From positions 5,169 to 69,168 of the forward strand of contig CAZJBV010000004.1 in assembly GCA_964544585.1 (NCBI GenBank): DNA of 64,000 nt, given 5' to 3'. The notes under the pieces were generated by a model. That model saw only the letters and a list, made by a program, of their open reading frames with translations. It was not told where the DNA came from and searched no databases. The stretch is from an uncultured Gammaproteobacteria bacterium. Lineage in GTDB: Bacteria; Patescibacteriota; Microgenomatia; 2-02-FULL-39-11. The position numbers were made by a program, and so were the translations under genes. Below, piece by piece: positions 5,428-59,012 of the stretch; position 1 is the stretch's first letter; the number at the start of each line of letters is the position of its first letter.

Positions 5428-6508
5428 TCTGTAAAACTTCTTTATTTGTCATTTCAGGATAAAGAGGCAAAGAAAGTATCTCTTGCGATGCCCTTTCTGC
5501 CTCGGGAAAATCTCCCTTTTTGTATCTCAAATTTTTAAACGATGACACTAAGTGTATCGGCACTGGATAATGTATCGCCGTCTGTATCCCCTTCCTATCC
5601 AGATACTCTTTCAACTCATCTCTCTTTTTTGTCCTAATCACAAACAAATGATAAACATGCTTAGAATAAGAAGATTCAAAAGGCAATATTATTTGATATT
5701 TGATATTTGATATTTGATATTTGATATTCTCTGATATCTCTCTTCTCCTCTCAATCCATCTATCCAAATATTTCAATTTCACCAAGAGAAATGCCGCCTG
5801 TAATTCGTCAAGCCTTGAATTCTTCCCCACCAAAACACTTTTATATCTTTCTTTCTCACCATACATTCTCAAAAGTCTTAGTTTTTCATAAAGCCTTGTA
5901 TCATTCGTCACCACCATTCCCCCGTCACCAAATGCACCCAAATTCTTGGTCGGATAAAATGAGAAACAACCTATATCTCCAAAAGATCCAACTTTTTTTC
6001 CATTTATTTCAGCCCCTACTGCTTGAGCACAATCTTCCACCACAGGAATACTCCATTTTCTCGCTATCGCTAAAATTTGGTTCATCTCGGCAGGATTTCC
6101 ATACAAATGTACCGGTATTATTGCTTTTGTTTTTTTATTTATCGCCCTTTCCAATTTCGTTGGATCAATATTGTAAGTTTTTCGATCTATATCCACCAAA
6201 ACTAGTTTTGCACCAGTTGCTGCTAAACCAAATGCACTAGGATAACTATTTGCAGGCATTATGACTTCGTCTCCTTCCCCTATCCCTAATGCTAAAAGTG
6301 ATAGAGTCAAAGCATCCGTCCCCGACGCCACTCCCAACGCGTATTTGACTCCTATGTATTCGGCAAATTTCTTCTCAAACTCTTCTACTTTTTCACCGAG
6401 AATAAATAGTCCTTGCCGCAAAACATCCTGAAAAATCTCTATATATTCTCTCTCAAGTTCTTTATTTTGCCTTTTTAAATCAAAAACAGGAATCATATTG
6501 ACTATCAT
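5396..6508 (-). CDS. DegT/DnrJ/EryC1/StrS family PLP-dependent sugar aminotransferase
   Basis: Family-typical blocks GVASGTDALTLSL, AIIPVHLYGNPAEM, VVEDCAQAVGAE, GDIGCFSFYPTKNLGAFGDGGMVVTND. The true start may be the internal MIPVFDLK (6496). Confidence 0.85.
   Translation of the reverse strand: MIVNMIPVFDLKRQNKELEREYIEIFQDVLRQGLFILGEKVEEFEKKFAEYIGVKYALGVASGTDALTLSLLALGIGEGDEVIMPANSYPSAFGLAATGAKLVLVDIDRKTYNIDPTKLERAINKKTKAIIPVHLYGNPAEMNQILAIARKWSIPVVEDCAQAVGAEINGKKVGSFGDIGCFSFYPTKNLGAFGDGGMVVTNDTRLYEKLRLLRMYGEKERYKSVLVGKNSRLDELQAAFLLVKLKYLDRWIERRREISENIKYQISNIKYQIILPFESSYSKHVYHLFVIRTKKRDELKEYLDRKGIQTAIHYPVPIHLVSSFKNLRYKKGDFPEAERASQEILSLPLYPEMTNKEVLQIAKSVVDFYD
5691..5735. repeat. Heptanucleotide tandem repeat (ATTTGAT)x5.4 plus variant unit, inside the DegT CDS
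   Basis: Read directly: atttgat x5 + att + ctctgat. It translates as a repeated ISNIKYQ peptide and the current copy number keeps the frame. Confidence 0.85.
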
Positions 6509-6637
6509 TTTTCCTTATATTACAACATTAGAACTAATATCGAAATCCACTTTCGTCACGAAAGACTTCAGGTTCGAGAGAAACTGGTGAGAATCGACGA
6601 CGGAGTATATGGCAATATACTTCTAGGAGATTCGAAC

Positions 6638-56727: not shown

Positions 56728-59012
56728 AACTTTTATCCTATCTTATCTTAATCGCCACTTTACTATTTAACCTTATTCTCTACTATCCCGAAACCACCAT
56801 CAAATTGGATCCAAATGATAATATCTTTCAATTTGCCCTCGTCAAAAGGACAAATGAAGTTTGGGAGAAATCAAATTGCCCCATTTCCCTTACCTGCCTT
56901 CCAAATTTAATTGACCACTGGGTCCCCAATTGGGCCGAGGGCTACCCCCTTCCCTACTACTATTCTCATCTTCCTCAAATTACCATCGTTGCCTCATACA
57001 ATCTTATTGTTGAGCCCATTTCTTCCATTTTCCATTTTCCATTTTCCATTTTCCATTATTATAACTGGACCAAGTATCTCCTCTTTACTCTCTTCCCTCT
57101 CTCTGTCTACATCTCTCTTCGTCTTATAGGAGTAAATCCTCTTTTGTCGGCAGCCGGAGCCTTCTTTAGTACCCAACTTTCAACCGACGGCCTCTACGGC
57201 ATCGATCCACCTTCCTATTTATGGCGCGGCTATGGCCTCTCAAGTCAACTCTATGCCACCTTTTTTATTCCCCTCGCTATCGCATTCACATATAAAACTC
57301 TTTCTGAAAACAATTGGAAATTGGAAATTGGAAATTGGAAATTTATTCTGGCCATCCTCTTTACCACCCTCTCAATCGCGGGACATTTGGGCATCGGTAT
57401 GATTCTTCTGTTGACACTTCCCGCCTTTCTTTTCATCGACTTCAATATCCCACATATTCTAAATCGCACCAAAAGACTTTTTATTATCATTGCCGTATCC
57501 ATTTTTCTTCTCTCCTACTGGATCATCCCGGCTATGCTCGGAAATATTTATCACCTCATCTCTTTTTGGGATCCCGTTTGGAAATTCAATTCCTGGGGTT
57601 TTATAGACGTCACTCGCCAATATTTTGAAGGAGAGCTCTATGATTGGAAACGTTTTCCCGTTGTCACCATCCTCGTTACTCTCGGCGCATTTTCTCTTGC
57701 TTTAAAGAAAAAATACTTCCCTTTTGCCCTATCTTTACTTCTTTGGATTTTTCTTTATTTTGGCCGCGCCACCTGGAATGGACTCATTGATCTTCTTCCC
57801 GGCATGAAGGATTTTCACCAATCACGCTTTATTGTCGGCGTCCATCTGGCCGGACTCTTTCTTATTCCGGCAGGACTAGAAATGATAACCCAGTTTTACC
57901 AAAAACTCATCAATAAAGTCATTTCATCCTTTCCCCAATTAAAAGATAAATCCTCCGAAACCACTTCAAAACTCGTCGCCTTTTATAGCCTTATTATCAC
58001 CACTCTCATCTTGATCACTTTTCTCACCCTAAAACAGACAGTCGATTACGCCAAATTAAATAATCAATGGATCAAAGAGGCAAATATCGCCTATGATTAT
58101 GAGGCAAAAAACTACCAGAATTTGTTAAAAAAAATAAGCCAAGGAAAACCAGGTCGCGTCTATGCCGGCCGTCCCGGCAACTGGGGAAGAGAATTTCGTT
58201 ATTCCTCAACCCAACTCTATTTATCAGTCTCCCTAGACAATCCCATCTCTCAATTCCTTCCAGAATCTTGGTCGCCAAATTCAGACAACGAACAAATGTT
58301 TGATGAACGCATTCCGGCAGATTATGATCTTTACAATCTCCGCTATATATCAGCTCCTCCGGATAAATTTACTCCTCCAAGGCAGGCTTCTCTTTCTGGG
58401 GTCTTTGGCCCATTTCAACTCTACGAAATCCCGACGACCGGCTATTTTGACATCGTCACATCAAATCTCATGGTCCACACCAAAAAGACAAACTTTGTCA
58501 ATATCGTCCACGTCTGGCAGAAATCATTTGCCAGACTCTGGAAAATGCATCCTTTAATTTCTCTTGAATGGGAAAAGCCACCGACAGGAATAGATAGAAC
58601 AATCACCATGACCGACCTCTCCAATTTTGAGGAAAATGGGCAAGAATATAACATATTCGCCAATCATCCTTTCTCTTTCCCAGAAGCCACAGTCTCAGGG
58701 AAAATAATTAAAGAAGAAATTACACCCGATGAAAAATATGTGGCCCGAGTCGAAGTACCCACAAACTGTAAGAATTGTTTTACCCTTTTCAAAATGACCT
58801 ATCACCCCAACTGGACAGTCAAACTTGACGGAAAATCTGTCGAAAAATACGCCGTCTTCCCCTTCTTTATCGCCATCCCTACCTCCCCAGGCCAACACAC
58901 TTTAGAATTTCAATACAAACCGAGTAATCTAAAATTATTAATTTTGTTTATAGAAATTATAGTAATTTTGGGATTCTTATTTTATCGATTAAGAAAAACC
59001 CACCGGTTGTGA
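56724..59012 (+). CDS. Large (~760 aa) polytopic membrane protein with C-terminal extracytoplasmic domain; putative glycosyltransferase/polymerase
   Basis: The start is set at ATG 56724, giving an ATGA overlap with the upstream stop. It contains two heptamer repeat tracts. Confidence 0.45.
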   Translation: MKLLSYLILIATLLFNLILYYPETTIKLDPNDNIFQFALVKRTNEVWEKSNCPISLTCLPNLIDHWVPNWAEGYPLPYYYSHLPQITIVASYNLIVEPISSIFHFPFSIFHYYNWTKYLLFTLFPLSVYISLRLIGVNPLLSAAGAFFSTQLSTDGLYGIDPPSYLWRGYGLSSQLYATFFIPLAIAFTYKTLSENNWKLEIGNWKFILAILFTTLSIAGHLGIGMILLLTLPAFLFIDFNIPHILNRTKRLFIIIAVSIFLLSYWIIPAMLGNIYHLISFWDPVWKFNSWGFIDVTRQYFEGELYDWKRFPVVTILVTLGAFSLALKKKYFPFALSLLLWIFLYFGRATWNGLIDLLPGMKDFHQSRFIVGVHLAGLFLIPAGLEMITQFYQKLINKVISSFPQLKDKSSETTSKLVAFYSLIITTLILITFLTLKQTVDYAKLNNQWIKEANIAYDYEAKNYQNLLKKISQGKPGRVYAGRPGNWGREFRYSSTQLYLSVSLDNPISQFLPESWSPNSDNEQMFDERIPADYDLYNLRYISAPPDKFTPPRQASLSGVFGPFQLYEIPTTGYFDIVTSNLMVHTKKTNFVNIVHVWQKSFARLWKMHPLISLEWEKPPTGIDRTITMTDLSNFEENGQEYNIFANHPFSFPEATVSGKIIKEEITPDEKYVARVEVPTNCKNCFTLFKMTYHPNWTVKLDGKSVEKYAVFPFFIAIPTSPGQHTLEFQYKPSNLKLLILFIEIIVILGFLFYRLRKTHRL
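57023..57057. repeat. (TTCCATT)x5 heptanucleotide repeat inside the CDS
   Basis: Read directly; encodes IFHFPFSIFHY. Confidence 0.85.
57312..57339. repeat. (AATTGGA)x4 heptanucleotide repeat inside the same CDS
   Basis: Read directly; encodes NWKLEIGNWK. Confidence 0.85.

Follow-up and report, generated by a model that had tools for sequence, protein, structure and literature searches.

Introduction

Heptamer over-representation and phase-variable genes with heptanucleotide repeats are already known in bacteria. In Escherichia coli K1, neuO, the O-acetyltransferase gene of prophage CUS-3, is phase variable and holds a 5' coding (AAGACTC)n array of 3 to 53 units (mode 20); it is OFF in 66% of 64 genomes, and in one culture 7% of the cells were one unit off (PMC13001214). 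Heptanucleotide simple sequence repeats (SSRs) are also known from TonB receptors, and the arrays of Haemophilus influenzae hmw count 13 to 38 units (PMC2651432). Heptameric repeats are over-represented in some bacteria, among them GGGNATC, which prefers four units and is under-represented in open reading frames (ORFs) (PMC4692102), and the TAACTGA repeats of the Beggiatoaceae have been proposed as mRNA binding sites (PMC4679880). Here we describe perfect heptanucleotide tandem arrays in surface-glycan genes of a groundwater Candidatus Gottesmanbacteria metagenome-assembled genome (MAG) from the Candidate Phyla Radiation (CPR; Microgenomates). They lie in a window of 64 kb, the whole stretch of DNA analyzed and the part of the genome to which our counts refer (assembly GCA_964544585.1, contig CAZJBV010000004.1, positions 5,169 to 69,168). 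The assignment to Candidatus Gottesmanbacteria follows the names that NCBI gives to identical proteins. An original prediction, made from the letters of this window, had proposed the arrays as contingency loci switched by slipped-strand mispairing.

As in neuO and hmw, the 7-bp unit lies in the coding sequence of surface-glycan-modifying genes, the translation is a 7-residue periodic peptide, and the frame is set by the number of units. Unlike those arrays, which usually exceed 10 units, the ones described here span 3.6 to 5.6 units (3.6 to 4.7 at related loci), short of the length that goes with high mutability. They are also all ON, mostly mid-gene, and conserved rather than variable in length across relatives, with no variation at the consensus level. 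The lineage-specific excess of period 7 next to normal neighboring periods and the size of about four units recall the STRR, GGGNATC and TAACTGA families. Those families are mainly intergenic, whereas five of the six heptamer arrays in the window are coding and in frame (PMC4692102; PMC4679880). They also consist of one or a few dispersed units, whereas the units of the window differ by gene, and are A/T-rich without G-quadruplex potential, and the arrays stay at orthologous codons. Rickettsia palindromic elements (RPEs), which are in-frame selfish DNA in protein genes, share with our arrays the tolerance of repetitive DNA, in frame, at permissive surface sites of conserved enzymes; unlike them, the arrays are tandem rather than palindromic, bring no net insertion, and are without common flanks.

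In the open-access literature, we found no work linking Patescibacteria or CPR to slipped-strand mispairing, contingency loci or repeat-based switching, and no description of arrays that are coding and in frame and keep their site, register and length from species to species while the unit turns over. A large 2025 survey of short tandem repeats mentions neither heptamers nor these phyla.

Results

Perfect arrays in four genes

Arrays were called by Tandem Repeats Finder and by an exact-run scan, and both recover the list of the original prediction. The window holds six perfect 7-bp arrays and one 8-bp array, and perfection is 100% for every heptamer core and for the octamer. Five of the six heptamer arrays, together with the octamer array, are coding and in frame within the intact ORFs of four genes:

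5690-5728, minus strand: heptamer array, TATTTGA x5.6 on the plus strand (AATATCA/AAATATC on the coding strand), a 39-nt run; product NIKYQISNIKYQI, amino acids (aa) 261-273 of the 370 of a DegT aminotransferase, hereafter site ii
16228-16252, minus strand: heptamer array, TTTTGAT x3.6 (coding strand AAAAATC); product ..KSKIKNQ.., aa 37-44 of the 321 of an SDR protein
20031-20105, no strand: degenerate intergenic compound A/T-rich array (period 7/8/25) with a perfect core, AAAATTT x3.9, at 20072-20098
47670-47695, plus strand: heptamer array, AAATTTC x3.7; product KNFKFQISN, in a loop preceding a predicted membrane helix of a 544-aa protein
47703-47730, plus strand: octamer array, TTTATTGG x3.5, 7 nt downstream of the 47670-47695 heptamer; product PLLVYWFIGLLA
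57023-57057, plus strand: heptamer array, site A, TTCCATT x5.0 (codon register TCCATTT); product SIFHFPFSIFH, about aa 100 of a 762-aa membrane protein
57312-57343, plus strand: heptamer array, site B, AATTGGA x4.6; product NWKLEIGNWKF, about aa 196-207 of the same 762 aa

The arrays of the 544-aa protein fall at aa 241-261. All of the arrays that the original prediction had placed in the DegT, SDR, paralog-family and large membrane proteins are present, with slightly corrected coordinates: the DegT array, given there as ATTTGAT at 5691-5735, exists as a rotation of that unit (TATTTGA) at 5690-5728. The intergenic array, absent from that list, has as neighbors an SDR gene (19041-20027) and an HldE-like gene (20097-21644).

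The arrays depart from chance by a wide factor. Order-1, -3 and -5 Markov simulations of the window yield 0.003 to 0.007 period-7 arrays of at least 3 units, against the six observed; periods 5, 6 and 9 to 15 have zero arrays in the window, and period 8 has one. The distribution of array lengths is bimodal, at chance level for 13 to 17 nt, empty from 18 to 24 nt, and with six arrays at 25 to 39 nt. All window arrays of at least 3 units thus fall at 3.6 to 5.6 units, in keeping with a preference for about four. In the control loci (~2.1 Mb, unrelated), too, 7 is the long period met most often; its arrays gather in a handful of contigs (L044, L058 and L100, Chloroflexota-like and others), a distribution that recalls the known heptameric SSR families.

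The original prediction had hedged that AT-rich composition might produce such repeats by chance. The genome, at ~35% G+C, and the A/T-rich units would fit that explanation, but the simulated expectation and the empty neighboring periods speak against it. The same arrays are found in independent assemblies (a second NCBI MAG and the Logan contigs of several runs), and the DegT orthologue array was recovered in NCBI, JGI and ENA contigs, which argues against an assembly artefact. Low complexity by chance and artefact were therefore both rejected, and we regard either as extremely improbable.

Reading frame and encoded peptides

Since 7 and 3 are coprime, an array of at least three units is read in all three unit frames and gives a 7-residue periodic peptide. 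Consequently, a unit can survive in a gene only when its coding strand is free of stops. A dictionary of translated unit repeats showed that peptides of at least 8 residues map back to a single unit unambiguously, so that arrays are detectable from protein sequence alone.

The frameshift arithmetic of the original prediction, that a unit of 7 is not a multiple of 3, was borne out in silico. Adding or removing one or two units at each array ends the ORF 0 to 100 codons past it, so the full-length product is lost at every array-bearing ORF. A unit that is not a multiple of three lies within coding sequence in five 7-bp arrays and one 8-bp array, and all six are ON. The shifted frames in these simulated one- and two-unit changes held no long alternative frame at any array. 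Dual coding through alternative frames was rejected, as every shifted frame stops soon.

Conservation of site, register and length

The DegT protein was compared with its 120 best homologues, mostly from Gottesmanbacteria and other CPR (alignment A1). Heptamer-derived peptides occur in 17 of these, all at two hot spots: site i, after CAQAHGA, and site ii, after RRREIA..Y, which is the site occupied in the window. The corresponding DNA carries (AATTTTC)4.7 in P0004 (67% identical), (AAATCTC)3.6 in P0009 and (TCAAAAC)3.9 in P0103 at site ii, and (AAATCCG)4.6 in P0100 at site i. In Gottesmanbacteria-type loci, DNA arrays were found in L081 (AATTTTC x4.7), L172 (AAATCTC x3.6) and L169 (AAATCCG x4.3 and x4.6), and L170 has three arrays at 3.9 to 4.1 units and two more at 2.9. 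Counted from a conserved Trp codon, the site-ii register is identical in the window, P0004 and P0009 (CAAATAT, CAATTTT and CAAATCT). These three units are 1 or 2 differences apart, and each array is perfect over its 39, 33 or 25 nt, in proteins that are 61 to 67% identical and of equal length at site ii.

A similar picture emerges at site A of the large membrane protein. Heptamer peptides were present in 12 of 150 representative homologues of the 770-aa YfhO/DUF6541-like protein. Their units, deduced in other species from protein sequences through the unambiguous mapping, share the register and show no length difference: TCCATTT in the window and in P0314/P0460, TCCATTC in P0312, and TCAATTA in P0307, among orthologues that are 41 to 63% identical. 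Because selection on the protein cannot create a 7-nt periodicity, the concerted evolution at site A is a DNA-level phenomenon. Judged from the aligned sequences, turnover at constant length of orthologous arrays that are each internally perfect is concerted evolution.

Turnover over longer time scales is indicated by decayed arrays in P0304 and P0451 (site A) and in P0002 (DegT), and by a replacement: P0012 and P0044, 80% identical, have the site-i array in common, and in P0044 an unrelated stretch, longer by 14 residues, takes the place of the site-ii array of P0012. In orthologues, insertions make site B a hypervariable hot spot, and DegT sites i and ii as well as site B tolerate insertions of tens of residues in other species. 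No net insertion accompanies the array in the DegT protein relative to its homologues, in the 544-aa protein relative to its paralogues (similar loop length), or at site A relative to its orthologues. In an AlphaFold model of the window DegT (mean pLDDT 91), the array runs through the end of helix 248-266 into the turn after it, with a pLDDT of ~87.

No heptamer peptide of at least 8 aa was seen in 120 SDR homologues, most of them non-CPR, a sample that is uninformative for the SDR array. A scan of genome contigs turned up no close relative; in L033, Ns fall exactly on the array site, and L006 is array-free. A metagenome search with the DegT alignment, which used very general patterns, gave only distant DegT proteins (at most 59% identity) among the matches listed, and these served as period controls.

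The two DegT hot spots house other in-frame inserts as well. CPR homologues carry inserts of up to ~70 residues (P0008, P0030, P0054, P0016, P0020, P0013, P0015 and P0036 in A1; window aa ~166-170 and ~260-275) that look like translated repeat elements common to several proteins, even to both sites, and are reminiscent of RPEs. Examples are 'FFPHPSSLSSSGQ...YPERKRRAQKAW' (P0008, site i) and 'FFPHPSGLRSSGQ...YPERSRRAQKG' (P0054, site ii), as well as 'NAPLPPLKVRGG', 'KSLRSLK' and 'PASPAGR'. In the P0064 cluster (P0137-P0143), from Gottesmanbacteria RIFCSP MAGs, the DegT protein is either full-length (376-381 aa) or split on long contigs into two pieces, an N-terminal one (168-173 aa, with ...GHNGW as its end at hot spot i) and a C-terminal one of 181 aa (P0139, on five contigs). 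In these protein records, the split form looks like a naturally occurring null or frameshift allele, with no heptamer at this hot spot.

Relatedness and reuse of units

The original prediction had held that the units differ between loci and are not copies of one element. Indeed, the coding-strand units of the window are all different (AAATATC, AAAAATC, AAATTTC, AAATTGG and ATTTTCC), the arrays have no common flanks, and dispersed two-unit copies do not exceed expectation within the window. The units are nevertheless related, being more alike than random stop-free coding heptamers (P ~0.009).

Reuse of a unit is plain in two other loci. In L169, AAATCCG (coding strand) occurs x4.3 at 6136-6165 in an SDR/Polysacc_synt_2 gene and x4.6 at 10494-10525 in a DegT gene, without common flanks. 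Within 21 kb of L170, another Gottesmanbacteria-like contig, a composite repeat is present four times (10855-10930, 17362-17430, 19609-19690 and 20148-20230), always on the coding strand; TCAAAAC or TCAAAAG x2.9 to 4.1 makes up its first part, and a common tail of ~25 nt of the form ATACAATTCAAAATTCAAAAATTAT its second. Its hosts are a DegT gene and two large unannotated genes. Read as units, these are two AAAACTC and two AAAAGTC arrays (two at 3.9 to 4.0 units, one at 4.1 and one at 2.9) in three genes. Proteins and genomes without relation to one another also have units in common: AAATTTC is found in P0368 and the 544-aa protein of the window, and AAATCCG in P0100, P0036 and P0376 (there on the opposite strand). 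In view of this reuse of units, element-like spread is conceivable.

A different repeat was noted in the window. The G+C-rich 20-nt palindrome CCTGCCTGCCGGCAGGCAGG occurs twice (6638-6657 and 59803-59822; expected 0.01), each time within a sequence like a tRNA T-arm. The second copy lies where the 3' end of the tRNA at 59699-59770 has been partly duplicated. In L081 (~360-400), a 2.7-unit heptamer array has a similar palindrome beside it, and the translation of this palindrome is found in frame in P0036.

Search for repeat-number variation

A second MAG of the same species (GCA_016186845.1, contig JACPKX010000021.1) matches window positions 44970-64000 at 99.94% identity, with 12 clustered single-nucleotide polymorphisms and no indel, and its arrays at 47670, 47703, 57023 and 57312 are identical to those of the window (L180). 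The SDR array is spanned unchanged in Logan contigs of three runs, in a look-up that required the exact protein; this protein is 100% identical to P0184, present on 4 contigs. The DegT array of P0004 is identical in eight contigs (NCBI, JGI and ENA) and one fragment, the contigs being at least 99.9% identical and retrieved by exact protein. Array lengths were also equal in six near-identical sets of proteins (P0059/P0121, P0100/P0122, P0307 with three variants, P0314/P0460, P0368/P0467 and P0318/P0465). Consequently, the unit-number variation that toggles the frame, for which the original prediction had suggested comparing orthologous loci, did not appear: the heptamer arrays stand at the same sites, with equal lengths throughout. 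A difference in repeat number was found in none of these comparisons (second MAG, runs, orthologue contigs and protein sets), all of consensus assemblies, which hide minority alleles.

It is important to consider that part of this negative evidence on switching is biased, since protein-based retrieval cannot see OFF alleles. The sole truncated match that could have been an OFF allele of P0004, P0158, was rejected as a contig-end fragment with an identical array. Protein comparison can detect variation, as P0020 and P0152 differ in the copy number of a minisatellite: these two proteins, more than 90% identical, carry at DegT site i a 39-nt minisatellite, in frame, encoding the 13-residue 'PPLKVRGGMGxMQ' in 2 versus 3 copies.

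The Logan contigs mapped to the window (L174-L186) provide a further trace. Assembled at k=31, they end at 20086 in three runs, at 57052 in two, at 47696 in two and at 47639 in one; the first of these ends lies inside the intergenic array. Seven of 24 contig ends are at most 1 nt from arrays, which occupy 0.35% of the window. Only the DegT array repeats a 31-mer unaided, and its 39-nt run holds the only duplicated 31-mers in the window. A co-occurring strain, which differs by 20 substitutions clustered at 16454-16520, accounts for the contig ends at 16453 and 16521, so contig ends do mark variants in these data. The 57052 end corresponds to the last k-mer that still holds a unique base of the left flank, as expected given at least 32 nt of uninterrupted TTCCATT in that phase. 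It fits an allele with at least one extra unit or, equally, a related species carrying the conserved TCCATTT array (P0314). Models with one- or two-unit alleles for the 20086 and 47696 ends were rejected, as they do not reproduce those ends. As a hint of repeat-number variants, the pattern of contig ends is suggestive but ambiguous.

The differences between strains and MAGs are packed in patches, 20 in 67 nt at 16454-16520, 7 in 36 nt at 48169-48204 and 4 in 27 nt at 58350-58376, with no indels and the rest identical. These patches resemble short conversion tracts, possibly from the many paralogues.

In exact look-ups, the DegT and 762-aa membrane proteins of the window were not on record and the 544-aa protein was found in NCBI MAGs only, and neighboring genes were found in Logan. 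The failures for the DegT and 762-aa proteins probably stem from k=31 contigs breaking at the arrays and from an unindexed NCBI source contig. Because k=31 contigs stop at or beside arrays, array-bearing CPR genes are likely to be systematically broken up or absent in short-read catalogues.

Host genes and their cluster

The four array-bearing genes are the following:

5396-6508, minus strand: DegT/DnrJ/EryC1-type sugar aminotransferase gene (Pfam PF01041, DegT_DnrJ_EryC1, E 1.7e-122, profile positions 4-359 of 360)
15396-16361, minus strand: SDR NAD-dependent epimerase/dehydratase gene (Pfam PF01370/PF16363, Epimerase/GDP_Man_Dehyd, E 1e-43)
46948-48582, plus strand: gene for a polytopic membrane protein (544 aa), one of a family of about ten paralogues in the window (GT-C/PMT_2-like relatives), with two adjacent arrays
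56724-59012, plus strand: gene for a YfhO/DUF6541-like large membrane protein, 762 aa from the ATG, in an ORF open from 56700 (Pfam YfhO and DUF6541), with two arrays

The 544-aa protein had no Pfam match, and some of its paralogues matched PMT_2. The 762-aa length is also the gene call in the second MAG.

The window is 91% coding and amounts to one very large glycan-biosynthesis cluster, with three DegT and at least six SDR genes, GT2, GNAT and many GT-C-like membrane proteins. Hence the statement of the original prediction that all arrays lie in surface-glycan genes holds for the array-bearing genes and is uninformative: nearly every gene of the window is a glycan gene, so the location carries no information. 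Functional enrichment cannot be judged from the comparative loci either, because all of them were picked via glycan genes. The cluster, of ~58 kb, packs about ten paralogous membrane proteins (~500-550 aa) with the three DegT and at least six SDR genes, and is broken by a non-glycan gap at ~28.7-30.6 kb that holds a PIN-domain gene (28866-29414). Plus-strand GC skew is strongly negative in all 2-kb bins (-0.12 to -0.34), irrespective of gene strand.

Discussion

The arrays exist, are non-random and in frame, keep their site, register and length while the unit turns over, and do not vary between near-identical strains. We lean, with moderate confidence, toward reading them as genuine lineage-specific heptanucleotide microsatellites that lie in frame in tolerant segments of glycan genes and are latent frameshift hot spots. 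The heptamer class would have been amplified specifically in the Gottesmanbacteria/Microgenomates lineage, and the arrays would occupy segments such as loops, domain linkers and hypervariable patches. To judge from their concerted evolution, replication slippage, intra-array conversion or both may keep the arrays homogeneous, and purifying selection on the protein would fix the total length and keep the frame open. As a by-product, the gain or loss of one or two units would give a truncated, presumably null protein, which a second slip could restore; we infer that rare OFF variants exist.

Several points weigh against this reading. Continuous slippage should yield many arrays of 2 to 3 units, and the window has none at 18 to 24 nt. 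Homogenization at constant length by single-unit slips is hard to achieve unless OFF states are tolerated, which would favor switching, or conversion takes part. The unit reuse in L169 and the common ~25-nt tail in L170 look like the spread of an element rather than local slippage. Furthermore, the reading does not account for the exclusivity of period 7 or for the clustering at 4 to 5 units, with none at 2.6 to 3.4, and the tolerance of the coding segments is judged from alignments and one structure model.

That the cell uses the arrays as phase-variation switches, individual glycan genes being turned ON and OFF by slipped-strand mispairing so that a population would present mixed surface glycans (e.g., against phage or in host attachment), appears unlikely to us, and no observed polymorphism speaks for such use. 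The configuration is that of true contingency loci, as every one- or two-unit change truncates the product, and a glycan-modifying gene, neuO, offers a precedent (PMC13001214). Perfect and potentially harmful arrays persist at orthologous sites across deep divergence, and their homogenization at constant length might be achieved most simply by +1/-1 cycles through OFF states. The k=31 contig ends at three arrays in two or three independent runs (20086, 57052 and 47696) also point in this direction, since the proven strain-variant patch gives such ends and 57052 is where an end would fall if some reads had one or more TTCCATT units in excess. Against switching stand the small number of units, the constant length among orthologues and the lack of any repeat-number difference in the comparisons made. 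All six coding arrays are ON, compared with 66% OFF for neuO among 64 genomes (PMC13001214), and three of the five coding 7-bp arrays lie mid-gene, not near the 5' end. Moreover, the 57052 end fits a related species with the TCCATTT array equally well, and the 20086 and 47696 ends do not fit one-unit models. Of the contingency-locus claim of the original prediction, the frame configuration, the non-chance nature of the arrays and their orthologous persistence therefore stand; an ON/OFF polymorphism in repeat number was nowhere seen, and the arrays are short and conserved in length. A more specific version, in which arrays held at fixed codons over genus-level divergence in Gottesmanbacteria, and perhaps in other Microgenomates, and homogenized by a period-7-specific process of slippage or conversion act as long-lived, low-rate envelope switches, is likewise a doubtful proposition.

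Reuse of units raises another explanation, quite improbable in our view, according to which the arrays belong to a dispersed selfish heptamer family, like the cyanobacterial STRR or the GGGNATC of Xanthomonas and Nostoc, that survives where it is in frame and tolerated, as an analogue of RPEs. AAATCCG in two L169 genes, the ATACAATTCAAAATTCAAAAATTAT-form tail shared by the L170 arrays in three genes, the related units of the window (P ~0.009) and the recurrence of units in unrelated proteins and genomes are all consistent with such a family. So are the translated repeat elements housed by the same DegT hot spots and the preference for ~4 to 5 units, which matches the four-unit preference of GGGNATC (PMC4692102). 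The window arrays, on the other hand, lack common flanks and extra two-unit copies in the window, and they leave the net length as it is in homologues or paralogues. Orthologues agree in site, register and length, which indicates vertical descent, not repeated insertion, and the fit of the DegT site-ii arrays to an ancestral I-x-N motif (ATTNNNAAT) suggests a local origin. An origin by element spread would be compatible with either view of the present function, microsatellite or switch. A role at the RNA or protein level, as mRNA sites for a common regulator or as useful heptad peptides, is very unlikely. Related units do occur in several genes of one pathway cluster, two L169 glycan genes use one and the same unit, orthologous sites retain their arrays, and for the TAACTGA repeats of Beggiatoaceae such a role has been put forward as a hypothesis only (PMC4679880). 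Nevertheless, the unit changes from gene to gene in the window and from orthologue to orthologue, the encoded peptides are not the same in different species, and neither a structure nor a partner was identified.

In practical terms, the arrays interrupt k=31 assemblies, and gene calls in CPR MAGs may be split or lost because of them. The read sets suited to a test of switching are already public. Even without switching, these would be unusual bacterial microsatellites, coding, in frame, fixed in position and length, and homogeneous, with a unit that drifts by single bases, and they bear on the open question of why period-7 repeats amplify in some bacterial lineages.

Most of the tiny CPR bacteria are uncultured, and many are believed to live attached to other cells. 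Their surface glycans are probably central to attachment and phage defense. If the arrays do switch, they would offer a simple, testable route to surface variation in very small genomes, and a simple-repeat phase-variation system would for the first time be on record from the Candidate Phyla Radiation, one in which the repeat is conserved but not its sequence.

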